Positions 1 through 12,293 of a stretch of 32,000 nt of DNA are shown here, piece after piece. The stretch is from Mycolicibacterium smegmatis. GTDB lineage: Bacteria; Actinomycetota; Actinomycetes; Mycobacteriales; Mycobacteriaceae. Every line of letters starts with the position of its first letter. Within the stretch, counting starts at the first letter, position 1. The stretch spans positions 2,010,001 through 2,042,000 of the forward strand of contig NZ_LN831039.1 in NCBI RefSeq assembly GCF_001457595.1. The letters run 5' to 3'. Under the pieces are notes generated by a model. The model was not told where the DNA came from. It was given only the letters and a program-made list of their open reading frames with translations, and searched no databases. The translations under genes were made by a program, and so were the position numbers.

Positions 1-629
1 GAGATACCGGGGCGGTTTCGCGTCGTGTAGGTCAGCACCCATCCGGCCCGTCCGGCTGCCGACGAAGTCACAATGTCCGGCTGTCCCGCGTTGGCACCGT
101 CCTTCAGGTGGAGGTACAGCTCTCGTCCACGAAGGTGAGTTATTGCTGATCCGTACCAACCGTCTGATGTCATTTCTGCAGCATCCGAGATCACTCTCTC
201 GAGGTCGTCGGCTACCACCAGTGGATTGGGGGTTCGGTCTGCCTCGGGTGTGGAAAGGTCGGCCAGGATGACAGGGAATTGGACGCGCGGGATCGCAACA
301 GTTTCGTTTCTCATGTTCGCGACGACGAGCCAGTCTGGGCGTACGGTTTCGTAGGCCGCCTTCAGGATGTTCGACCATTGCGAGGCGACGAAACGATCGG
401 GAAGATCGGGATGGCGTCTCGATGTGTAAACGACCATCGCCGAACTGTCATCGTCCAGTTTGCGCAACCGCGTGGACAGGACACGGTTGCCGTCGATCTC
501 CCGCTCGGTGGCGACGTAGTACAGCGTCACACCATCGAGTGCTCGAAACAACTCCAATCGAGCACGACCGTCGCCGGTGTCCTGGGCGGCCGAGGAGAAT
601 ATTCGCGCGCGCTGGTCTTTATCGATCAC
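1..629 (-). CDS. Partial CDS (at least 209 aa, runs off window start); putative cognate immunity protein with possible SseB-like two-repeat architecture
   Basis: Hand translation of the minus strand from GTG 629..627 is open to position 1: VIDKDQRARIFSSAAQDTGDGRARLELFRALDGVTLYYVATEREIDGNRVLSTRLRKLDDDSSAMVVYTSRRHPDLPDRF...GRELYLHLKDGANAGQPDIVTSSAAGRAGWVLTYTTRNRPGI. A GAGGA lies about 8 nt upstream. It is missing from the ORF track because no stop falls inside the window. It lies 75 nt downstream of the toxin stop on the same strand. The SseB-like call is pattern recollection only. Confidence 0.6.
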   Translation of the reverse strand, partial: MIDKDQRARIFSSAAQDTGDGRARLELFRALDGVTLYYVATEREIDGNRVLSTRLRKLDDDSSAMVVYTSRRHPDLPDRFVASQWSNILKAAYETVRPDWLVVANMRNETVAIPRVQFPVILADLSTPEADRTPNPLVVADDLERVISDAAEMTSDGWYGSAITHLRGRELYLHLKDGANAGQPDIVTSSAAGRAGWVLTYTTRNRPGI

Positions 630-703
630 TGTGAGGTCCTCGGAGTCGGTTGTCGATCGGTAGTCCGGAGAACAAAGGCGACAGGTAGGTGTTCGGGCAT
701 GGC

Positions 704-3700
704 TTACCAGTCATCATCGCCGAGGTTTTCAGGTTCAGGCCAGGGATACTTCTCAATGAAATCGTAGGTGTCCTGGTGGTAGATCCCGTGGACGTCGAAA
801 ACTCTGTGGTTCCAGGAACCGAGGCACGCCACGAAGTCAACCGCTCCCATGTTCGGCTGTAGAAGGTCACTGAGTGTTGTCGCTCGATCAACCGTGTGCG
901 GAGTACCTACAATGTTCATGTCGTCGGGCGGCAAAAGTGTGTAGTTGGGCATCGTTTCGCCTGGGTAGTACGTCTTCTTGAAGACGCGGGAGGTGTCCCC
1001 ACCCGACTCGATGAGATTCCCCAGCGACTGCGTGATCGGAGAACCATGTTCGCCGTACACCGTCACGGATGTGTCTGCGGGGACGGTGAACGTTCCATCG
1101 CCGCTGTGGTAATCACCATGCCCGCTTATCTTGTAGCGGCCGTCTGGCCCGACGGCGTTCTCGCGCGGACCGTCGTCGTCGCTGTAGCCACGATCATCGC
1201 CCCGCTGTTGATCGGTGTCGTCCCGCCAGCTATGGCTTGGCTCTGCGCGCACATCCGCGTCAGGCTTGTTCGATGCTCGATCGATTGAATCCTGATCTGT
1301 ATCCCGAAGAGTACGACTATCTGTCTCCGAAGTGAGTCCGTCGTGTCTTGCGGTTGGTTCCATCTGGCCATTCGGCGCAGGACCATCGGCAGATGTCGTT
1401 CTGTGGAACAACTCGGTTGCCCTGCCCGTGTCCGGGTCGATCTGGACAATTCGAGTGACATTCGGGTTATCCATCAGACGTGGAATCTCGACCGTCTGCC
1501 AGATGTTGCCTGGCCGAAGGTCGCTGCCCACGATCGCCGTAACGTCGCCGCGAGCATTCTCAGCATATGCCGCCGAAGCGTCTTCCCAGAACCTGACTGA
1601 TTCGGGATCGTGACGGTTCCATGCGGGCAACGGATGCACGCCGTTGCGCTCAAGCGTCATCTCGAGCGTTGTCCCGTTCGAGCCCTCCGCAATTCGCTCG
1701 GCAATTCCAGAGCCGTCCGGTCCTACGCCGACCCCGTTCGCGTCGCGTCCTGACCAATAGTGAGCCGAATCAGGTTCTGTTCTTGTCAGACGAAGGAGTT
1801 CGTCATAAGACGGCAGGCTGCCCGGAACGTAGTGGCCATTCTCATCGAGCATCGGGTTGTAGTCGAGATCTGACTTTGCAGGATCCGTGAATGCGTCGCC
1901 GTCGTGCACAGGCGGCTCCAGCCCACTGGAGTCGTGCGGTGGTTCGGGTTTCGGGGGTGGGGAGTTGTGGTGAGAATCGGACGGCGGCACAGACGAACCC
2001 GGCGCAGTGCCATGTTCCTTCGGTGCCGTTTGTTCAGACGTGCTCGAGGCTGGGCTGGTAGACGCCGATTGTCTCGATTGGTCCGCAGATGAATGGACCG
2101 GCGCCGACGGCGTGCTCCCTGGTGTCGGTCCGACCGCGCTGGGTTGTTGTGCCCTGGGAGTTTCCGGCGATCCCGTGTGCGAAGGTCGTGTCTCTGGACC
2201 GCGCGTGGACGTGTCGGGCGTCGGTAATTTGGCAGCGGGGGAAGGGCTTTCGCCGCCACCGTGCACCGGTCCCGGAGCGTGGGGCGTCATGGGCGAACCC
2301 GGTCCGCTCCCCACGCCAGGCGACATCATGGGCCCCATCGCGGGTTGTGGGCCGTTGACGGCCGAAGAATAAGCCGGCTCCCGAGATTCGTTGGTTTCTG
2401 CCGAGTTTCGGTCGTGGGTGACCGGTTGTTCGGCGGCAGCATTATGAGCGGGTTGCTGTTCAGCAGGCCGATGTGCTTGCTCGTCCGCCCAGTTGCGCGA
2501 CTCGTCGGTTACCGGTCGGTGGTGCTCGGCCGAGCCGATGTTGCTGTCCGACGAGATCGCGGAGTGCTCACCACCCACTGACCCGCCAATGTGTTGCGTC
2601 GGTGAGTGTGTGGATGCAGGCGCATCCGATGTCGAGGGTTGGTGAGTCGGTGTCGAGTTGGACTCTGCCGACGTATGGGGAGCGTCGTTTTGTGCTGCGG
2701 GCGTGGCGGGTTCGGGCGCATGCTGCGGCGTGTGATCGACGCTGGGCGGCGTGTGGCTGGGCTCTGGGTTGCCGCGAATCCCGGGCTCGCCGACCGAAGA
2801 GGACCCCGGATGGCTCGGCTCGGGCGTGCTCGGCGTATGCGGTGGCGGGGCGTCGCCGCGTGTCGGACCTGGATCGGCCGGGCCGACCGGGCGGTGTGGA
2901 GATTCAGGTGGGGGACCGTCGCCGCCACCGGGCGGGCGGGTGCCACCGGGATTGTGTGTCGTCGGCCCGGGCGGCTCGGGAGGCCGTACCGGGGCTTCGG
3001 GACCGCCCGGATTGGACGGGGCATCAAGACGATTGGAGGGCGCCGGGTTGATGACGGAGTCCGGGATGCCGTCCTGCCGGATCTCCGGTACTTCGGGGAC
3101 GCGGGACCCCGTGACCGACAGGTCGTTCCCGTCCAAGCCGTGACGCCCTGGGAGATCGAGGGGCGGAGAGTCCGCGTGGTCGAACGCCCTGCGGACTTTG
3201 TTGACACCCTTTGCCACGGTGCCACCCTTGGACAACGGCCCGCCTACGAACAGGCCGGCGATGTTGAAGCCCGCTTCGCCGATGCCGCGTCCCGGATTCT
3301 CCCCGGTCAACTGGTCCCAGGCGAAGAACTCTTTGCCGGCTGCGATGCCGATGTCGTCGATCAACGACGGATCCTTGATGACGGCCAGGGCCGTCTCGCC
3401 CAGGCCCTTCCAGGTGTCGAAGTCGGCGAAAGCCACTGTCCCGGCCACCGTGTTGATCACGCCGTTGAGTACGCCGGTCGACAGATCGGTCTGGAATTTG
3501 ATGATGTCCGAGATCGCGCCCCCGACTTGATCGCCGAGGATTTCCCGCAGGTTCTTGTCAGCCCATTTCTGGAACTTGGTGACGGTGTCGTTGAGCGCGT
3601 TCTTGAGCTCTTCCAGCAATGCGCCGACGGCTTTCACCTGACGCTGAAAGTTCCCCAGAAGGGTTCGAATGTCCTCGACGACCTCTTTGATGATGTCGAG

Positions 3701-4501
3701 CGCGTCCCCGGTGAATATGCCTTTGACCGTGTCGATGATCCCGTCGATGGACGCTACGCGGTCAAGTAACCGCCGTATCGCGTCCTGCGTTTCCTGCACG
3801 TTGTCGGCGAACGTATTCAGTGTCTCGGCGAGGTTCGTGGCCTGGTTGGCCAGGTCCGCAACGCCGTCGGCCAGATCGGCGTGTGCCTGGGCGATCTGCG
3901 AAGCTTCGGGGATCTTCTGCGTCGATACGGCTGTGCTGGACCCGCTGACCTGGTTCGAGACGGCCGAGAACCCGGTCGCCAAGTTCTCCCACTGCGCCGC
4001 GGTCAGACGCAACATCGCAGGATTGCCCGACGGCCAGGCGGTAGGTCCGAGAAAGCTCCCCACGAGGTACCACGCCGGCGGCGGCGGAACGACGCTGAGG
4101 CTCGGGCTGTCCCTCGCGTCAACGGGTTTGGTTTCGTCGAACTTGCCCTTCACGCCTCCTGTCGGGGCGCCGCCGCCTATGGTCGAAACGGCGTCGGCAT
4201 TGGCGTAGTTGTGCCCACTCGCCTGGAGTCTGAGGCCGACGGTTTTGAAAGTGTTTGCGCCGTTGGCCAAAGTGTTGGAGAACTTCTGCGTGAGATCTCC
4301 GTAGTCCAGTGCCATCGCGAGGCCGGCAAGGTCGATGCCCGAGGCGATACCGCTCGACAACATGGGGCCGAGCGCTCCCATGAGCATGTCCAACTGATTG
4401 CCCAGCGAGAGCATGCTCTCCCCGGCGCGGATCAGTACCTGGGGGTCGACTTCAATGCGTATTCCGCTGACGCCACCGCCGCCACCGCTGTTGGATGGCA
4501 C
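704..4501 (-). CDS. 1265-aa ESX/type VII secreted polymorphic toxin, CpnT-like N-terminal domain, Pro-rich linker, ADP-ribosyl cyclase-like domain plus extra C-terminal domain
   Basis: Single long ORF with a GTG start at 4501 that overlaps the upstream stop (TAGTG). N-terminal helical region carries HNYANAD (YxxxD, residues 99-103), [17 protein letters not shown] and GGPLSKGG. These resemble my recollection of the CpnT N-terminal domain (SAHNYSLAEA, WPNGDSTKLRAAA, GGPLSK). See domain features below. Confidence 0.85.
   Translation of the reverse strand: [1265 protein letters not shown]
707..1150 (-). other. Extra C-terminal domain (residues 1118-1265) of unknown function with a His...Cys pair
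   Basis: [10 protein letters not shown] (His codon 1118..1120) and [10 protein letters not shown] (Cys codon 824..826). This is the only Cys in the 1265-aa protein. The beta-strand-like context resembles clan CD (caspase/C80 CPD) GHG and xAC motifs. Weak call. Confidence 0.3.
1400..1885 (-). other. ADP-ribosyl cyclase / CD38-like (Tox-ARC type) domain, residues about 873-1034
   Basis: Ordered motifs [36 protein letters not shown] and WQTVEIPRL...NVTRIV. They match recalled Aplysia cyclase motifs MFWSG, ITLEDTL, SFWGMASSSYAHSAEGEVTYMVDGS and FGKYELPNL...KVTRV. The putative catalytic Glu codon is at 1487..1489. Confidence 0.65.
1886..3169 (-). other. Low-complexity Pro/Ser/Thr/His/Gly-rich linker (about residues 445-872)
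   Basis: Translation shows about 430 aa without hydrophobic core segments, for example [34 protein letters not shown] and the recurring PEPSH. Confidence 0.7.
3182..4501 (-). other. Toxin N-terminal helical secretion/translocation domain (residues 1 to about 440)
   Basis: Ala/Leu/Gly-rich helical sequence. YxxxD motif at nt 4193..4207 and W-P-S-G at residues 156-159. Long predicted helices follow ([24 protein letters not shown]..., [19 protein letters not shown]). Confidence 0.6.
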
Positions 4502-4809
4502 TAGTCATCCCACATCTCGGAGTTTTTGGTAACGGCGTCACTGTAATTCGAGCGTGCAGTCTGGGCGATCTTCTGCAATTGAGACAACGCTTCACGCATC
4601 TGCTCAGCGCCTTCTCGCCACAGTGCCTGCGCCTGCGCTTGTGCGTCGGAGGCCTCGCCATGCCACGACTGCCGCAACGAGGCCATGGTCCGGTCGATGT
4701 CCTCCAGACAACTGGTGACCTCGCGTTCGTAACTTGCCATGTGCGCGATGGCATCTTGCATCTGGCCGAAATCGACCACCAGAGGGGCCCCGCCACCGCT
4801 ACTGGGCAT
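4501..4809 (-). CDS. WXG100 family (ESAT-6-like) protein, 102 aa
   Basis: About 100 aa, helical, with a central W-H-G (SWHGEAS, nt 4657..4665). GGAAGG lies upstream of ATG 4809. The start overlaps the upstream gene by 11 nt and the stop overlaps the toxin start. Confidence 0.85.
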   Translation of the reverse strand: MPSSGGGAPLVVDFGQMQDAIAHMASYEREVTSCLEDIDRTMASLRQSWHGEASDAQAQAQALWREGAEQMREALSQLQKIAQTARSNYSDAVTKNSEMWDD

Positions 4810-5668
4810 CGTTCAACCTTCCGAAGCGCATCGAATTACCCGTCGTCGGTGGTGACGGTGACGGAGGCGCCATCTCCCCAGGAGCCGACACGCTCGACGA
4901 GTCGGTGCCGGCGCCTCCGCCTGCACCGTTGGCCTCCAGCGTCTCAGCTTCCTGCTCGTCGCTCTGCCTCTCGGTTTCGTCGCGTTCGTCGGTGTGTTCG
5001 TCCTCGGTATCCGGTGTTGCCTCGTCGACAGGAACGAGAGGGTCAGCAGCGGTCGTCGAGCCCGTCTCGACCGGTGTGGCGCCTGCACCCGACTCTGATT
5101 GCGCGGCCTGCACAATCCCGGTCACGCCCTGTGTGATCGCGGTTGCGGCCTGGGTGAGGCCACCCGTCAGCTGCCCTGCCGCCTGAGCAGCGCCCTCGGC
5201 AAGCTGGCCGCCGAGCTGAGCTGCGGGCTCGCCGAGGCCCATCATCGCCGCGAGATCCTCGGTGCCGCCGTCCATCTGGGCCGACGAGGCCTGTTGAGCA
5301 GACGTAGCAGCGGCAGGGGATGCCGATGACGCCCCGGCTGATCCCGCAGGGGACCCGCCGCCGGGCTGAAACGAGGAGCCCACTGCACCGGCCGCCTGCT
5401 GATCGGTTGCGCTGTAGCTGTCGGCCGAGGCTTTCAGTGACTCCGACATCGCCTGCAGACCCCGGATGACCTGTCCGGCGCCGTTGTGCCACTTGTCCCA
5501 CTGTTCCGAGTACGCGGACGCGGCGCCGCCCTTCCAGCCCGACCCGAGCAGCTGATCCACCGAGAGATCGACGGCAGACAATCCGTCCTGCAGGCGTTGT
5601 CCGGCGTCAGCGAGCGCGGCCGAGGCCGACCGAAGTTCGGACGTGACCACTTCCAGCGACTGCCCCAC
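4799..5668 (-). CDS. WXG100-domain protein with long low-complexity and acidic C-terminal extension, 289 aa
   Basis: N-terminal 95 aa carry W-K-G (GSGWKGGAASAY, nt 5528..5536) and YSATD (YxxxD, nt 5402..5416). GTG start follows GAGGGGGG. The rest is Ala/Gly/Gln/Ser-rich, then acidic (DEATPDTEDEHTDERDETERQSDEQEAE). Confidence 0.8.
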   Translation of the reverse strand: MGQSLEVVTSELRSASAALADAGQRLQDGLSAVDLSVDQLLGSGWKGGAASAYSEQWDKWHNGAGQVIRGLQAMSESLKASADSYSATDQQAAGAVGSSFQPGGGSPAGSAGASSASPAAATSAQQASSAQMDGGTEDLAAMMGLGEPAAQLGGQLAEGAAQAAGQLTGGLTQAATAITQGVTGIVQAAQSESGAGATPVETGSTTAADPLVPVDEATPDTEDEHTDERDETERQSDEQEAETLEANGAGGGAGTDSSSVSAPGEMAPPSPSPPTTGNSMRFGRLNDAQ

Positions 5669-5757
5669 AGTGTTACCCCCCTCGACCGGCAGCCGACAAT
5701 CGGACCTGAGTTTATCGGCGCTCGCTGGGCCGCGATCGCACCAATTACGCTGCCCGT

Positions 5758-6390
5758 GTGCTCATCGCGATAGAGGGCGTCGACGGCGCCGGCAAACGCA
5801 CGTTGACCAACGGCCTGCGGGCGGCGTTCGAGACCAACCACAAGTCGGTGGCCAGCCTCGCGTTCCCGCGGTACCACCAGTCGGTGCCCGCGGACCTCGC
5901 GGCCGAGGCGCTACGGGGCAGCCACGGCGACCTCGCCGAGTCCGTGTACGCGATGGCGACGCTGTTCGCGTTGGACCGGGCCGGCGCGCGGGAGCAGATC
6001 GAGCACCTGCAGGCCGCCTACGACGTCGTCATCCTCGACCGGTACGTGGCGTCGAACGCGGCCTACAGCGCGGCGCGTCTGCACCAGGGCGTCGACGGCG
6101 AGGTGGTGACGTGGGTGCACGAGCTAGAGTTCGGGCGCCTGCACCTGCCCGTGCCGGACTGGCAGGTGTTGCTGAACGTGCCGACCGAACTGGCCGCGCA
6201 GCGCGCCGAGCACCGCGCCAACACCGAGGCCGACCGCGCCAAGGACGCCTACGAGCGCGACGACGGTCTGCAGCGGCGCACGGGTGAGGTGTACGCGGCA
6301 CTGGCGGCCGCCGACTGGGGCGGCCGATGGGCGATCGCCGGGCCCGACGTGGACGCGACGGCCCTGGCCGACCGGTTAAGCAGCGGTTAA
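5758..6390 (+). CDS. tmk: dTMP (thymidylate) kinase
   Basis: MLIAIEGVDGAGKRT P-loop, mycobacterial Tmk length (210 aa), position immediately upstream of mtrA as in M. tuberculosis. Confidence 0.93.
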   Translation: MLIAIEGVDGAGKRTLTNGLRAAFETNHKSVASLAFPRYHQSVPADLAAEALRGSHGDLAESVYAMATLFALDRAGAREQIEHLQAAYDVVILDRYVASNAAYSAARLHQGVDGEVVTWVHELEFGRLHLPVPDWQVLLNVPTELAAQRAEHRANTEADRAKDAYERDDGLQRRTGEVYAALAAADWGGRWAIAGPDVDATALADRLSSG

Positions 6391-6441
6391 AGCGAAACGC
6401 CCGCGTGTGGTAGCCGAGTTTTGTGGCGATCTGGTGACACC

Positions 6442-7128
6442 ATGGACACCATGAGGCAAAGGATCCTTGTCGTCGATGACGACCCGTCACTGGCCGAGAT
6501 GCTCACCATCGTTCTGCGTGGTGAGGGTTTCGACACCGCGGTCATCGGCGACGGCAGCCAGGCACTCACCGCTGTCCGGGAGCTCAGGCCGGACCTGGTC
6601 CTGCTCGATTTGATGCTGCCTGGGATGAACGGCATCGACGTGTGCCGTGTGCTGCGCGCCGACTCCGGCGTGCCGATCGTCATGCTGACCGCCAAGACCG
6701 ACACCGTCGACGTGGTGCTGGGCCTGGAATCCGGAGCCGACGACTATGTGATGAAGCCGTTCAAGCCGAAGGAGCTCGTCGCGCGCGTGCGGGCCCGGCT
6801 GCGGCGCAACGAGGACGAGCCCGCCGAGATGCTGTCGATCGGTGACGTCGAGATCGACGTGCCCGCGCACAAGGTGACCCGGCAAGGCGAGCAGATTTCG
6901 CTGACACCGCTGGAGTTCGACCTGCTGGTGGCCCTGGCACGCAAACCACGGCAGGTGTTTACTCGGGATGTGCTGCTCGAACAGGTGTGGGGATACCGTC
7001 ACCCCGCTGACACCCGTTTGGTGAACGTGCATGTCCAGCGGTTGCGGGCAAAGGTGGAGAAAGACCCGGAGAACCCGCAGGTGGTCCTGACCGTTCGAGG
7101 AGTGGGATACAAGGCCGGACCCCCGTGA
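6442..7128 (+). CDS. mtrA: Response regulator MtrA (OmpR family)
   Basis: MDTMRQRILVVDDDPSLAEML... is near-identical to recalled M. tuberculosis MtrA. The ORF-track start at 6421 is a likely 5' over-extension. Confidence 0.96.
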   Translation: MDTMRQRILVVDDDPSLAEMLTIVLRGEGFDTAVIGDGSQALTAVRELRPDLVLLDLMLPGMNGIDVCRVLRADSGVPIVMLTAKTDTVDVVLGLESGADDYVMKPFKPKELVARVRARLRRNEDEPAEMLSIGDVEIDVPAHKVTRQGEQISLTPLEFDLLVALARKPRQVFTRDVLLEQVWGYRHPADTRLVNVHVQRLRAKVEKDPENPQVVLTVRGVGYKAGPP

Positions 7129-7195
7129 TCGACGCCGGCGAGCATGCGCGGCGCCGTGACGAGTCGAAGGCTTCTTTGCACGAGGAGCGGTGCCG

Positions 7196-8857
7196 ATGAT
7201 CTTCGGCTCCAGGCGGCGCATACGTGGGCGTTGGGGAGGTTCCGGCCCACTCGTGCGTGGATTGGGGACGTTGGGCAGAGCGCTCAGCCTGGTGTGGCGT
7301 CGCTCCCTGCAACTGCGGGTCGTCACGCTCACGCTCGGGCTGTCACTGGCCGTCATATTGGTACTCGGCTTCGTGCTGACCAGTCAGATCACCGACCGGA
7401 TCCTCGAAGTCAAGGTCAAGGCTGCCACCGAAGAGGTGGAGCGGGCCCGCAACACCGTCAGCGGCATCGTCGGCGGTGAGGAGTCCCGCTCGCTCGAGAG
7501 CAGCCTGCAGTTGGCGCGCAACACGCTCGTCGACCGCAAGGCCGACGTGCGTGCGGACATGGCCGGCGCCTTTGACGCGGTCCTCGTCGTACCCGGCGAC
7601 GGCCCCCGCGCGGCCGCTGCGGCCGGGCCGGTGGCGCAGATCCCCGAGGCGCTGCGTGACTTCGTCAAGGCCGGTCAAGTCAGCTACCAGTACGCGACCG
7701 TGCAGACCGAAGGGTTCTCCGGACCCGCGCTGATCGTGGGCAGCCCGACGACGTCGTCGGTGCCGAATCTTGAGCTGTACCTGATCTTCCCGTTGAACAA
7801 CGAGGAGAGCACCATCGCGCTGGTGCGCGGCACCATGGCGACCGGCGGTGTGGTGCTGCTCGGTCTGCTCGCGGCCATCGCGTTGGTGGTGGCGCGTCAG
7901 ATCGTGCAGCCGGTGCGGTCGGCCTCGCGCATCGCCGAACGGTTCGCCGAGGGGCACCTGACCGAACGCATGCCGGTGCGCGGCGAGGACGACATGGCGC
8001 GCCTGGCGGTGTCGTTCAACGACATGGCCGAAAGCCTGTCACGTCAGATCCAGCAGCTCGAAGAGTTCGGTAACCTGCAGCGCCGCTTCACCTCTGACGT
8101 GAGCCACGAGCTGCGCACGCCGCTGACCACGGTGCGCATGGCCGCCGATCTGATCTACGACCACAGCGAGGATCTGGACCCTGCGCTGCGCCGGTCGACC
8201 GAGCTCATGGTCAACGAACTCGACCGGTTCGAGACACTGCTGGCCGATCTGCTGGAGATCTCACGCCACGACGCGGGCGTGGCCGAATTGTCGGTCGAGT
8301 CGCTGGATCTGCGGTCGACGGTGCGCAGCGCACTGGACAACGTGGGACATCTCGCGGCCGACGCGGGTGTCGAGCTCACTCTCGACATGCCCGAGGAAGA
8401 CGTCATCGCCGAGGTGGATCCCCGCCGCGTGGAACGCATCCTGCGCAACCTCATCGCCAACGCCATCGATCACGCCGAGAGCAAGCCCGTGCAGATCCGC
8501 ATGGCCGCCGACGAGGACACCGTCGCGGTCACGGTGCGCGACTTCGGCGTCGGGCTGCGTCCTGGTGAGGAGAAGCTGGTGTTCAGCCGCTTCTGGCGGT
8601 CCGATCCGTCGCGCGTGCGGCGCTCCGGCGGCACGGGGCTGGGCCTGGCGATCAGCATCGAGGATGCCCGCCTGCACCAGGGACGGTTGGAGGCCTGGGG
8701 CGAGCCCGGCAAGGGTGCGTGCTTCCGGCTCACGTTGCCGCTGGTGCGTGGCCACAAGGTGACGACGAGCCCGTTGCCGCTCAAGCCTGCCTCGGAGCAG
8801 CGGCCGGCGCGCCGCCGTTCCAACAAGGATCGGGAAGCAGCGGAGGAGAGCGTGTGA
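7196..8857 (+). CDS. mtrB: Sensor histidine kinase MtrB
   Basis: [12 protein letters not shown]..., HAMP, H-box SHELRTPL, and N/G boxes. Start ATG 7196 matches the Mtb MtrB N-terminus; GTG 7190 is the alternative. Confidence 0.95.
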
Positions 8858-10611
8858 AGCGCCTGCTGACGGTGTTGGTCGTCGGTCTGGTGGCCCTGGT
8901 GTCCGGTTGCGCGGGAATTCCCAGCTCGTCTTCTCCGCAGGCGATCGGCACGGTCGAACGACCGGCCCCGCCGAGCCTGCCGAAACCGACACCGGACATG
9001 GACCCGGACGTGCTGCTGCGGGAATTCCTCAAGGCCACAGCCGATCCCGCCAACCGGCATCTGGCGGCGCGGCAGTTCCTCACCGAGTCCGCGTCGAGCG
9101 CATGGGACGACGCGGGCAGCGCCCTGCTGATCGACCGCGTGGTGTTCGTCGAAACCCGCAGCACCGACCGGGTTTCGGTGAGCATGCGCGCCGACATCCT
9201 CGGATCGCTGTCGGATCTGGGTGTGTTCGAGACGGGGGAGGGGGCGCTACCCGATCCGGGGCCCATCGAACTGGTCAAGACCTCGGGTGGCTGGCGGATC
9301 GACCGGTTGCCCAACGGCGTGTTCCTGGACTGGCAGCAGTTCCAGGCCACCTACAAGCGCTACACCCTCTACTTCGTCGACCCCACCGGGACCACCGTGG
9401 TGCCCGATCCGCGCTACGTGGCGGTGTCGGATCCGGATCAGCTTGCCACCGAACTCGTCTCGAAGCTCATCGCCGGACCGCGCCCGGAGATGGAGCGCTC
9501 GGTGCGCAACCTGCTCGACCCGCCGCTGAAACTGCGCGGTCCGGTCACCCGCGCCGACGGTGGCAAGACCGGCGTCGGCCGCGGCTACGGCGGTGCGCGC
9601 ATCGACCTGGAGAACCTGTCGGCCTCCGACCCGCACAGCCGCCAACTGCTTGCCGCCCAACTCATCTGGACGCTGTCGCGCGCGGGTGTGGCAGGCCCGT
9701 ACGTGATCAACGTCGACGGCGCGCCGCTGGACGACCGGTTCGCCGACGGCTGGGAGACCTCCGACGTCGCCGCCACCGATCCGGGTGCGGCGCCGGGCGC
9801 GGCGGCGGGCCTGCACGCGCTCGTGAACGGATCGCTGGTGTCGCTCGACGGTCAGCGCGCCCCGCGCGTGCCCGGCGCCTTCGGGCAGGCGCCGCACCAG
9901 GTTTCGGCATCGGTGTCGCGCAACGGTCAGGACGCCGCGTCCGTGGTGGCGCCGCCGGGAGCCCCCGATCCGGCAGCGACGCTGTGGATCGGCCCGCTGG
10001 GCGGCAGCACCGTGCAGGCCATGGAGGGCCGCACCCTGTCGCGGCCGAGTTGGTCGCTGGACCAGGCGGTGTGGGTGGTCGCCGACGGCATCAACGTGGT
10101 GCGTGCCATCCGCGACGCGTCGGGAACCCCGGCGCGGATCCCGGTGGATTCCAGTGCGGTGAGCAGCCGCTACCCGGGACCGATCAGCGACCTGCAGCTG
10201 TCGCGTGACGGCACCCGCGCCGCGATGGTCATCGAGGGCCAGGTGATCCTCGCGGGTATCGAACAGACGCAGGACGGACGGTTCCTGCTGACCTACCCGC
10301 GCCGGTTGGGTTTCGGGCTCGGCAACTCCGCGGTGTCGCTGTCGTGGCGTACCGGTGACGACATCGTGGTGAGCCGCACCGATCCGGAGCACCCCGTGTC
10401 GTATGTGAACCTCGACGGCGTGAATTCCGACGCGCCGAGCCGCAATCTGGTGATGCCGGTGTCGGTCGTGGCGGCCAACCCGTCCACGGTGTATGTCGCC
10501 GATCAGCGTGGCGTGAAGCAACTTTCGGCCTCGGCCGACGAGGAGAACTCGGGTTGGGTCGAGGTCAGTCCGCTGATGGTGCCCGGCTCGCTTCCCGTAC
10601 TGCCCGGCTGA
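8854..10611 (+). CDS. lpqB: Lipoprotein LpqB (MtrAB accessory)
   Basis: GTG 8854 overlaps the mtrB stop (GTGA). Signal peptide plus lipobox LVSGC. Conserved position after mtrB. The ORF-track start at 8719 is an over-extension. Confidence 0.93.
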
Positions 10612-10650
10612 GACGACCCGGATGTCGGTGGCCCGGGGAACACTGCGGGC

Positions 10651-11304
10651 ATGCTCGATCTGGTCCTGCCCCTCGCGTGCGGCGGTTGTGGTGCTGCGTC
10701 GACCGGGTGGTGTCCGCGCTGCGCGGCGGAGTTGACGGTCCGCGACGACGAGCCACACCTGGTCACCCCGCGCACCGATCCGGGTGTCCCGGTGTTCGCT
10801 CTTGGCCGCTACGCTGGCGCCCGCAGACGCGCCATCGTGGCGGCCAAGGAGCACGGCCGCGCCGATCTGCTGCCGCCGCTGGCAAACGCGCTGCGCAGCG
10901 GTCTGGAGCGGCTGCTGACATGGGGCGTCGTCGTTGCTCCGGTGATCGTCGTGCCGGCTCCCACACGGCGCAGTGCGGCCCGCAGACGCGGCGGTGACCC
11001 GGTCACCCGGGTCGCGGTGGCCGCGACCGCCGCACTGCCCGGCGTCACCACGGTCCCGGCCCTGCGGACGCGCGCGTGGGTGCGGGATTCGGTGGGGCTC
11101 TCGGGTGGTGACCGCCAGCGCAACCTCGCCGGACGGATCCGCCTCACACGGGCGGGACGGCGGGCCCTCAGCGACGGCGCGGAGGGTGACCTTGTGCTGG
11201 TCGACGACGTCGTCACGACCGGGGCGACCGCGACCGAATCGGTGCGCACCCTGGCGAGATCCGGTGCCGAGGTGGCCGTGATGCTGGCCATCTCGCACGC
11301 TTGA
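10651..11304 (+). CDS. ComF-family phosphoribosyltransferase-domain protein (Rv3242c-like)
   Basis: N-terminal CGGC...CPRC zinc-finger-like motif and C-terminal PRTase motif VLVDDVVTTGAT. Confidence 0.85.
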   Translation: MLDLVLPLACGGCGAASTGWCPRCAAELTVRDDEPHLVTPRTDPGVPVFALGRYAGARRRAIVAAKEHGRADLLPPLANALRSGLERLLTWGVVVAPVIVVPAPTRRSAARRRGGDPVTRVAVAATAALPGVTTVPALRTRAWVRDSVGLSGGDRQRNLAGRIRLTRAGRRALSDGAEGDLVLVDDVVTTGATATESVRTLARSGAEVAVMLAISHA

Positions 11305-11600
11305 CGGGGGTGCTGATTGTCGGGGCGTCACACGATCATGAAGAACACGAAACCCGTAGGCGGAATCACTGGCACTAACGGGTGAACACGGCTACCGTCG
11401 GCAGCAACACCCCGTGAAGCCTCACGGCAGAGCGCCCCTACCTCGCTCCTTCGCCGTACACGGCCCGTCACATGGCAGGAGGTGAGTCACTCGACCCCTT
11501 GCGCCGGTGGGCGGAGCAAAAATTTTTGGCCCTTCGGCGCGTTTCATCGAGAGCCCGGCACGCGATGCGTGCGACGTGTGAGAGAAACGAGTTGCCAAGT

Positions 11601-12293
11601 ATGTCAAGCCATTCGATGGATTCAACCCGCACCATGGTCGTCGAAGACGACCGCGAGAGCACTGCTGGCACCACCCCGGAACGGCCCCATGCCGAGGTCG
11701 TCGTCAAGGGTCGCAACGTCGAGGTCCCCGACCATTTCCGCACCTACGTCTCAGAGAAGCTGTCGCGCCTTGAGCGATTCGACAAGACCATCTACCTCTT
11801 CGACGTCGAACTTGACCACGAACGCAACCGCCGCCAACGCAAGAACTGTCAACACGTCGAGATCACCGCGCGCGGGCGCGGCCCTGTCGTCCGGGGCGAG
11901 GCCTGCGCCGACAGCTTCTACGCCGCTTTCGAGTCGGCGGTCCAAAAGCTCGAGGGCAGACTGCGACGCGCCAAGGACCGGCGCAAGATCCACTACGGCG
12001 ACAAGACCCCCGTGTCGCTGGCCGAGGCCACCGCGAAAGACCCGCTGGCGGGCCTCGACGTGTCCAGGGAGGACGGTGAGGCGCGCTACAACGACGGCGT
12101 CGCCGAGCACGAACCCGGCCGGATCGTCCGCATCAAGGACCACCCCGCGACGCCCATGACGGTCGACGACGCGCTCTACGAGATGGAACTGGTCGGTCAC
12201 GACTTCTTCCTGTTCCACGACAAGGAGACGGACAGACCCTCGGTGGTGTACCGCCGCCACGCGTTCGACTACGGGCTGATCCGCCTGGCCTGA
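11601..12293 (+). CDS. hpf: Long-form ribosome hibernation promoting factor (Rv3241c-like)
   Basis: VVVKGRNVEVPDHFRTYVSEKLSRLERF (sigma-54 modulation/RaiA fold) and the C-terminal dimerisation domain IVRIKDHPATPMTVDDALYEMELVGHDFFLF. ATG 11601 is chosen as start (230 aa) but is uncertain; 11616 is the alternative. Confidence 0.88.
   Translation: MSSHSMDSTRTMVVEDDRESTAGTTPERPHAEVVVKGRNVEVPDHFRTYVSEKLSRLERFDKTIYLFDVELDHERNRRQRKNCQHVEITARGRGPVVRGEACADSFYAAFESAVQKLEGRLRRAKDRRKIHYGDKTPVSLAEATAKDPLAGLDVSREDGEARYNDGVAEHEPGRIVRIKDHPATPMTVDDALYEMELVGHDFFLFHDKETDRPSVVYRRHAFDYGLIRLA

Follow-up and report, generated by a model that had tools for sequence, protein, structure and literature searches.

To our knowledge, CpnT, with its toxin domain TNT, was long regarded as the only secreted toxin of mycobacteria. 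ESX-4-dependent competition between mycobacteria was shown in 2026, and the Esx-associated toxin loci of the Mycobacteriales were surveyed (PMC13444075). Toxin domains of the ADP-ribosyl cyclase (ARC) family were pointed out computationally on WXG-type carriers of type VII secretion systems (T7SS) as early as 2012 (PMC3482391). One of them, Tac1 (9OUF), was characterised as a type VIIb LXG toxin that kills by hydrolysis of NAD+ and NADP+ via a cyclic ADP-ribose intermediate (PMC12356396); the contexts treated in that paper are LXG, type VI secretion system (T6SS) and CdiA toxins, and mycobacteria are absent from it. The Stv domain has been described in a single preprint, which regards it as probably a toxin domain at the C-terminus, compares its His/Cys pair with those of caspases and of the cysteine protease domains (CPDs) of MARTX toxins, and reports no convincing structural homologue (bioRxiv 10.1101/2022.08.23.504947). 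Here, a gene cassette of Mycolicibacterium smegmatis that brings these elements together is described. It occupies positions 1-5668 of a stretch of 32,000 nucleotides (contig NZ_LN831039.1, 2,010,001 to 2,042,000; the whole stretch is referred to as the window) and runs past its left edge. The cassette is the MSMEG_1868-1872-type operon of this species. Its toxin is the orthologue of MSMEG_1870 (entry A0QTJ8 in strain mc2 155), which was named in a review as the M. smegmatis counterpart of Rv3903c. It is likely, in our judgement, that these genes form a CpnT-like polymorphic toxin cassette for type VII secretion with two independent payloads, each of which has its own candidate immunity gene.

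Gene layout and the CpnT-type carrier

A sequence-only reading of this DNA had proposed four co-oriented, tightly coupled minus-strand genes beside tmk-mtrAB, and the open reading frame (ORF) listing and translation agree: two WXG100 genes are followed by a toxin gene and by a frame that crosses the left window edge. Genes 1 and 2 overlap by 11 nt, the stop codon of gene 2 and the start codon of the toxin gene share 1 nt, and 74 nt separate the toxin gene from the fourth gene. This fourth gene, taken before for a small one, encodes 249 amino acids (i249), only about 209 codons of which lie in the window, and a fifth gene of 97 amino acids (i97) follows 36 nt further. The features are listed below, with window coordinates unless the locus L001 is named.

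4799-5668, minus strand: gene 1, WXG100 (EsxF-like) protein of 289 amino acids
Residues 5-93 of gene 1, minus strand: WXG100 domain (PF06013, E = 2e-20; TIGR03930, E = 6e-19)
4501-4809, minus strand: gene 2, WXG100 (EsxE-like) protein of 102 amino acids
704-4501, minus strand: gene 3, toxin of 1265 amino acids
3182-4501, minus strand: toxin residues 1-440, helical export domain (PE-like plus WXG100_2/PPE-like), a CpnT-type carrier
4193-4207, minus strand: predicted type VII export motif Y99xxxD103, within HNYANAD at residues 97-103, end of the first helical hairpin
1862-3181, minus strand: toxin residues 441-880, Pro/Ser/Gly-rich linker (21% Pro, 14% Ser, 10% Gly)
1400-1828, minus strand: toxin residues 892-1034, module 1, predicted Tac1-family ADP-ribosyl cyclase/NAD(P)+ glycohydrolase domain (Tox-ARC), assigned by homology to PDB entries
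1157-1399, minus strand: toxin residues 1035-1115, acidic inter-module linker, probably disordered (21% Asp, 11% Arg)
707-1156, minus strand: toxin residues 1116-1265, module 2, Stv domain (PF21527, E = 1.3e-20, 74.8 bits against a cut-off of 24.2)
1-629, minus strand: gene 4 (i249), first ~209 codons; full length of 249 amino acids at L001:13873-14622
L001:14659-14952, beyond the window, co-oriented: gene 5 (i97), 97 amino acids, 36 nt past i249

The two small proteins at the head of the operon, already read as WXG100-type, exceed the curated cut-offs for WXG100 families (PF06013, TIGR03930), and the E-value of gene 2 with PF06013 is 1e-16. Their best matches in the PDB are MAB_3112 for gene 1 (4i0x_A, E = 8.6e-7) and MAB_3113 for gene 2 (4i0x_B, E = 1.2e-6). 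These correspond in gene order to genes 1 and 2, and they head a SigM-induced operon of M. abscessus annotated as the esxF-esxE-CpnT homologue (PMC13491425). The first gene was singled out earlier for being about three times the normal WXG100 size; the size is right, but it is no peculiarity, as the median in the family is 226 amino acids and the protein exceeds 110 amino acids in 52 of 58 cases. An oversized first WXG100 gene is thus the norm of the family. The surplus is a low-complexity Ala/Gly/Ser/Thr tail of about 190 amino acids (window 4799-5368), and tails of similar length, with little sequence conservation, are found in most related loci. Along the tail, a Gly/Ala/Gln-rich stretch (AAQLGGQLAEGAAQAAGQLTGGLTQAATAITQGVTGIVQAAQ) is followed by a strongly acidic block and a Pro/Ser end.

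The N-terminal domain of the toxin matches PF25547 (WXG100_2) at residues 142-244 (E = 5e-8) and, weakly, PE at residues 17-105. All the landmarks by which it was first compared with CpnT are present, namely HNYANAD, WPSG at residues 156-159 inside AWPSGNPAMLRLTAAQW, and GGPLSKGG at residues 420-427. Residues N98, Y99, N101, A102, D103 and W156-G159 are invariant in an alignment of 18 family members, and the equivalent motif Y88xxxE is required for the secretion of CpnT (PMC8092274). The AlphaFold2 model of the domain, of low confidence, is all-helical, with helices at residues 20-49 and 58-106 before the export motif. The best Foldseek matches of the model are to the PE-PPE fold of EspB with probabilities of 0.7-0.8; because the E-values are not significant, these matches lend weak support only, and published modelling of CpnT on EspB agrees with them (PMC8092274).

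Relatives of this carrier could be mapped, as the sequence-only reading had suggested. A protein search and a genome scan yielded 30 proteins and 60 loci with the same N-terminal domain at 43-63% identity, and the named members are all fast-growing mycobacteria. Because the genome scan was built on two strict peptide patterns, its hits were confined to fast-growing mycobacteria; it reached neither M. tuberculosis nor M. smegmatis and was too strict for Rv3903c. The upstream WXG100 pair is present in 58-59 of the 60 loci (the N-terminal 100 amino acids of gene 1 in 58, gene 2 in 59), and tmk adjoins 20 of them, as in M. smegmatis. The C-termini vary across the 60 loci and include TNT-like domains, a probable ADP-ribosyltransferase (from the C-terminal motif, judged by eye) and several types not assigned to a known family. 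The N-terminal domains of the TNT-bearing relatives are 47-48% identical to that of M. smegmatis, and the one that was checked, P0013, matches the TNT of M. tuberculosis (4QLP, E = 2.7e-12). The toxin of M. kansasii is more distant, with 27% identity over the N-terminal domain (E = 2e-17), both landmark motifs in register and the export motif aligned with HNYSLAE; for MSMEG_1870 and Rv3903c the review gives 24.5% identity. A shared carrier with widely differing C-termini indicates a polymorphic toxin family on a CpnT-type carrier. The ordered MAB_3112/MAB_3113 matches, the TNT-bearing relatives and the M. kansasii alignment bear out the esxF-esxE-cpnT-ift logic first seen in these genes, and these sequence comparisons support the conclusion that the cassette follows the operon layout of CpnT-type polymorphic type VII toxins.

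Two predicted payloads and their candidate immunity genes

Behind the carrier, a Pro-rich linker (residues ~441-880) and two C-terminal modules (892-1034 and 1116-1265) were found where the first reading had placed them. Its statement that the effector end is not TNT also held: the C-terminus consists of ARC and Stv, and a Pfam search of the toxin gave no match to TNT (PF14021). The Pro-rich linker shares only low-complexity similarity with the linkers of other loci, and the GC content across it is raised (0.66-0.71).

Module 1 matches Tac1 (9ouf_A, E = 1.1e-32 over residues 901-1034), a second structure named 'ADP-ribosylcyclase toxin' (9ro8_A, E = 8.7e-32) and, weakly, PF02267. The residues of the active-site cleft are kept: E1005 corresponds to E573 of Tac1, E947 to E516 and W972 to W540, and W916 is also aligned; intervals of 57 and 24 residues in the 9OUF alignment agree with the numbering of the paper. 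In Tac1, E573 is essential and E516 favours hydrolysis over the release of the cyclic product (PMC12356396). The predicted outcome is the same chemistry as that of TNT, carried out by an unrelated fold. The module is 70-80% identical to the C-terminal domains of shorter toxins (803-856 amino acids) that carry ARC only, which were found in M. frederiksbergense (L071/L072), M. kansasii (L073/L074) and Mycolicibacterium sp. Dal123E01 (L075). These toxins stop at the equivalent of R1034, so that their ORFs end before the acidic linker and have no counterpart of it, and their loci contain neither Stv nor i249. Homologues of i97 (50-69% identity) start within ~25 nt of their stop codons. In L075 (4706-9691), a second type of ARC-i97 cassette lies on the opposite side of mtrAB-lpqB, followed by an SseB-family protein of 448 amino acids; such toxin loci seem to have settled more than once in the neighbourhood of mtrAB.

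In M. kansasii (CP019883.1), the toxin (L073:5570-7981) ends in an ARC module, 72% identical to that of M. smegmatis, in place of TNT, and a 98-amino-acid homologue of i97 lies at 8001-8297. The flanking genes agree in domains and lengths with the neighbourhood of cpnT in M. tuberculosis; they include a 480-amino-acid PolyA_pol protein, a NUDIX protein, a 169-amino-acid ORF, WXG100 genes of 103 and 96 amino acids, DUF5631/5632 and, downstream, an EccB protein of 495 amino acids. With pcnA/mutT4-like genes on one side and EccB on the other, we take this to be the cpnT position beside ESX-2, on the gene order that we assume for H37Rv. This suggests that the pathogen has a predicted NADase other than TNT at its apparent cpnT locus, which bears on the evolution of NAD+-depleting virulence in the M. 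tuberculosis lineage.

Module 2 carries the Stv signature, G1127-H1128-G1129 and A1225-C1226. An exhaustive search gave 486 cluster representatives of the Stv family, and among the best 150 of them the histidine of G-H-G (H1128) is conserved in 139 of 142, E1165 in 142 of 151 and the cysteine of A-C (C1226) in 149 of 150. The domain stands at the extreme C-terminus in 144 of these 150. Among 35 long Stv proteins, 13 are Rhs proteins and 6 have a WXG100_2 carrier, and single examples also bear TNT or Ntox28. Four representatives (P0146, P0148, P0149 and P0157) consist of carrier and Stv and nothing else. Such Stv-only carriers, together with the Rhs-Stv proteins, indicate that Stv can be the sole payload, and from this comparison of architectures Stv is probably a second toxin. 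A chemistry like that of clan-CD cysteine proteases is a guess from the His-Gly...Ala-Cys signature. Most members of the family end 2-5 residues after the cysteine; the mycobacterial Stv toxins (also L067 and L076) extend ~38 residues past it to an acidic D-D-D-W end (GDDDW, DDDDW or EDDDW; here window 707-721).

The partners of Stv were traced through i249. Homologues of i249 follow Stv in Mycolicibacterium sp. HK-90, where the toxin (L067) has Gln_amidase and Stv, in Mycobacterium sp. LTG2003 and, as a remnant, in M. farcinogenes; in the L076 toxin no Pfam domain was found between carrier and Stv. A metagenome scan seeded with the i249 alignment returned 24 loci, and Stv ends just before i249 in all 22 that have at least 500 bp upstream. 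Nineteen of the 22 encode Stv-only toxins on the same carrier and lack i97, and ARC with i97 occurs only in the three M. smegmatis-like ones. Thus i97 tracks ARC and i249 tracks Stv: what each candidate immunity gene follows from locus to locus is a toxin domain, whereas the carrier stays the same. Each of the two proteins would inhibit its own payload. The toxin-immunity layout first proposed is right in placing a partner gene downstream, but the adjacent gene goes with Stv, and the partner of the predicted NADase lies outside the window. The simplest reading of these associations is that two independent toxin-immunity modules, (ARC, i97) and (Stv, i249), have been concatenated here.

The position of Stv behind another toxin domain could also be explained if it were a CPD-like autoprocessing cysteine protease that cuts the acidic linker after delivery and frees ARC, with i249 as a chaperone or an inhibitor against premature cleavage in the producer. 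Stv does follow toxin domains repeatedly (ARC in M. smegmatis, Gln_amidase in L067, and TNT or Ntox28 elsewhere in the family), its conserved dyad resembles that of clan-CD/CPD proteases, as the Stv preprint also remarks (bioRxiv 10.1101/2022.08.23.504947), and the literature leaves open by what means a CpnT-type toxin parts from its carrier (PMC13444075; PMC8092274). Yet in at least 4 representatives and 19 metagenomic loci Stv is the only payload on this same carrier, and in Rhs proteins it takes the cargo position with nothing else to free. An intact i249 without a Stv toxin, as in M. wolinskyi, is the behaviour of an immunity gene, and the pairing of Stv with C80 peptidase domains, reported in the same preprint, would be redundant were Stv itself the processing protease. 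Autoprocessing is ranked lower because of the Stv-only toxins, and we regard it as improbable.

Stv as a second toxin with i249 as its partner also fits the other states in which the two downstream genes occur. Besides the orphan i249 genes of M. wolinskyi (intact) and M. farcinogenes, i249 and i97 are fused into a single protein of 344-359 amino acids in P0080, P0082 (M. goodii), P0083 and P0086. In the syntenic, tmk-adjacent locus L070 (8001-9088; P0097/P0098), i249 is divided: its N-terminal half is joined straight to i97, and its C-terminal half stands as a gene of its own. The L070 toxin is without ARC and Stv, and called minus-strand genes cross its N-terminal region, so that it may be disrupted. 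Polymorphic toxin systems that act between bacteria typically show orphan and fused immunity genes and an exchange of toxin-immunity modules at one and the same place in the chromosome, and we favour bacterial competition on these grounds; the ARC toxins of the Tac1 family and the mycobacterial EatA are likewise antibacterial (PMC12356396; PMC13444075). The target might instead be eukaryotic, either a predator or a host cell (amoebae or macrophages, for instance), the two downstream proteins only protecting the producer before export. CpnT/TNT kills macrophages and IFT serves self-protection only (PMC8593097; PMC8092274), NAD+ depletion is lethal to eukaryotic cells too, and M. kansasii, a pathogen, has an ARC-i97 pair at what we take to be its cpnT locus. 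A primarily eukaryotic target is in our view unlikely, though somewhat less so than autoprocessing, and the two kinds of target are not mutually exclusive.

Both candidate immunity proteins lack signal peptides, and no internal similarity between them was found. i249 has no significant relative in Pfam or PDB; a weak SseB profile match was obtained for 5 of 20 members. Its AlphaFold2 model (predicted local distance difference test, pLDDT, 83) has two alpha/beta domains, for which Foldseek gave no significant fold match in the PDB. i97 has no relative in Pfam or PDB, even with a profile of 38 sequences. Neither protein matches Imm74/Tci1, the known immunity family of ARC toxins; immunity of a non-Imm74 kind was noted for T6SS-linked ARC toxins (PMC12356396).

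Proposed mechanism, origin and state of the locus

In the mechanism proposed here, the EsxF/EsxE-like WXG100 pair would act as targeting or accessory partners of the helical N-terminal domain, which would offer its YxxxD signal to an ESX system, most likely ESX-4 by analogy; export through the pair and the motif is proposed after CpnT (PMC8092274) and EatA (PMC13444075). The long Pro-rich linker would join the carrier to the payloads. ARC would hydrolyse NAD+ and NADP+ to ADP-ribose via a cyclic intermediate and starve the target cell of redox cofactors, and Stv would be the second toxin, perhaps a clan-CD-like cysteine protease. The producer would be protected in its cytoplasm by i249 against Stv and by i97 against ARC, pairings that come from gene neighbourhood. 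As to origin, a 'Stv + i249' unit may have been inserted at the 3' end of the ORF of an ARC toxin, ahead of i97, which would give the nested order ARC-Stv-i249-i97. The GC content fits a horizontal exchange of modules, being lowered to 0.57-0.61 across the coding region of ARC, Stv and i249 (window 1-2000) against mostly 0.65-0.75 in the tmk-mtrAB-lpqB flank (5500-12000).

Several results weigh against the two-payload reading or parts of it. The AlphaFold2 model of the carrier is of low confidence (pLDDT 58). For i97, the lack of a match to Imm74/Tci1 counts against the proposed role, for which the basis is its place beside the toxin gene in three independent lineages with ARC only. The SigM -35 motif (GGAACCG) is absent from the 89-bp region upstream of the operon and its matches elsewhere are at background level, so that a tie to the ESX-4/SigM regulon is unsupported. 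Finally, the toxin gene is split in one M. smegmatis lineage into fragments of 245 (P0036) and 401 (P0034) amino acids, and the system is thus dispensable in some strains.

This split ORF, with the insertion sequence (IS) elements immediately downstream of the cassette and with a generic scan for sigma-70 promoters and terminators that was uninformative and gave no recognisable promoter, would be expected of a decaying or silent relic without current function. Against this, all five ORFs are intact and more than 99.8% identical across many M. smegmatis assemblies, mc2 155 included, the catalytic residues of both modules are intact, and the genes are as closely spaced as those of an operon; a relic therefore appears very improbable. 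The split lineage suggests strain-level loss of the toxin with persisting immunity genes. The 401-amino-acid C-terminal fragment P0034 was seen on 99 contigs.

Around the functional cassette envisaged here, tmk, mtrA, mtrB and lpqB run divergently on the plus strand from 5758. On the other side, two IS-type transposase gene sets (L001:15085-18045) lie between the i97 gene and a TPR/AAA gene pair; one was read as IS3-like orfA/orfB and the other has rve and HTH_Tnp_1 domains. In L070, the TPR/AAA pair is followed by one further gene and then by sahH. We assume that sahH stands directly beside tmk in M. tuberculosis, and relative to this order the cassette and the TPR/AAA genes look like an insertion. 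Long plus-strand ORFs over the toxin gene (e.g., 2606-3769) were set aside as antisense artefacts of high GC content. A PADLOC scan for defence systems returned only coiled-coil noise (ZorA) on the helical N-terminal domain, and an Rfam scan of the window found nothing.

A wider proposal, which we put forward tentatively and with less than even confidence, is that Stv and i249 form an unrecognised, self-contained module, a clan-CD-like protease toxin with a tandem SseB-like neutraliser, that can be grafted onto the 3' ends of type VII toxins to give effectors with two warheads. In parallel, TNT would have been swapped repeatedly for ARC on the CpnT carrier, the apparent cpnT locus of M. kansasii included, together with a new immunity family of 97 amino acids, and MSMEG_1868-1872 could be a ready model for the delivery and release of ESX toxins. 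The locus places a predicted member of this class of secreted toxins in M. smegmatis, the standard genetic model, and its modular logic leads to directly testable hypotheses. If these are true, ARC is a NADase neutralised by a new 97-amino-acid family, and Stv, with 486 representatives that include Rhs toxins and a Shigella plasmid protein, is a toxin served by a partner of its own. Should they prove wrong, the locus merely adds to the polymorphic toxins that lack a characterisation.

Comparison with known systems

CpnT-kind loci, the 2026 survey of Esx-associated toxins and a characterised family of ARC toxins are already known. The earlier remark that the combination is not a characterised system was therefore overstated: ARC is a homologue of Tac1, Stv is a named, if uncharacterised, Pfam domain, and the layout was surveyed in 2026 (PMC13444075). 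In the literature searched, no description was found of ARC on a mycobacterial CpnT-type carrier, the apparent M. kansasii cpnT locus included (the supplement of the 2026 survey, which was outside the search, may list the M. smegmatis locus), nor of i97 as the partner of ARC, of the Stv-i249 pairing, or of an arrangement with two payloads and nested immunity genes such as that of M. smegmatis and M. goodii.

The Stv protein of Shigella small plasmids (PF21527) has the same domain at the same C-terminal position with the histidine and cysteine kept. In M. smegmatis, by contrast, Stv trails another toxin domain on a type VII carrier and has a conserved neighbour, i249; a text search for 'immunity' in the available part of the Stv preprint found nothing (bioRxiv 10.1101/2022.08.23.504947). 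With the CPDs of MARTX and large clostridial toxins (C80, clan CD), Stv has in common a His...Cys dyad after hydrophobic strands and a placement C-terminal to effectors. It differs from them in that no sequence similarity or significant structural similarity is detectable, according to the same preprint, and its occurrence as the sole payload argues for cargo and against a processing device.

Tac1-Tci1 of Streptococcus parasanguinis (9OUF; Colautti et al., 2025, PMC12356396) resembles the M. smegmatis system in the homologous toxin domain, with both glutamates and the active-site tryptophans kept, in its type VII association, and in its gene order, in which a pair of small genes for helical accessory proteins precedes the toxin and an immunity gene follows it. 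The carriers are different, LXG of T7SSb in Tac1 and a CpnT-type carrier of T7SSa here, and the putative immunity protein of 97 amino acids has no detectable relation to Imm74/Tci1. EatA-EatI with TapA1/TapA2 (Benedict et al., 2026, PMC13444075) shares the plan, with one or two small genes of the Tap/WXG-like type, then a toxin made of a helical N-terminal carrier and a variable C-terminal effector, and then an immunity gene. EatA, however, is an arabinanase that acts in the periplasm and has a lipoprotein inhibitor, whereas the M. smegmatis payloads are both predicted to act in the cytoplasm, and the candidate immunity proteins have no signal peptides.

The closest counterpart is the esxF-esxE-cpnT-ift operon of M. 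tuberculosis (Rv3905c-Rv3902c). Both begin with a pair of WXG100 genes; next comes the gene of a toxin whose helical N-terminal domain of ~440 amino acids bears a YxxxD/E motif, and then an immunity gene, actual or candidate. Both toxins have a linker rich in proline (Ala/Pro-rich in CpnT) and a C-terminal domain that destroys NAD+, or is predicted to, with a cytoplasmic immunity protein. NAD(P)+ hydrolysis would be common to the two, and the family of the M. smegmatis N-terminal domain includes TNT-bearing members. The differences are that the identity of the N-terminal domains is low (24.5% per the review, and 27% to the M. kansasii toxin at what seems to be the cpnT locus), that the first WXG100 protein of M. 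smegmatis has a ~190-amino-acid tail, and that its site lies beside tmk-mtrAB and not ESX-2. Two candidate immunity genes are present in M. smegmatis, neither of them related to IFT, and its predicted NADase has the ADP-ribosyl cyclase fold in place of TNT and is followed by a second payload, Stv.

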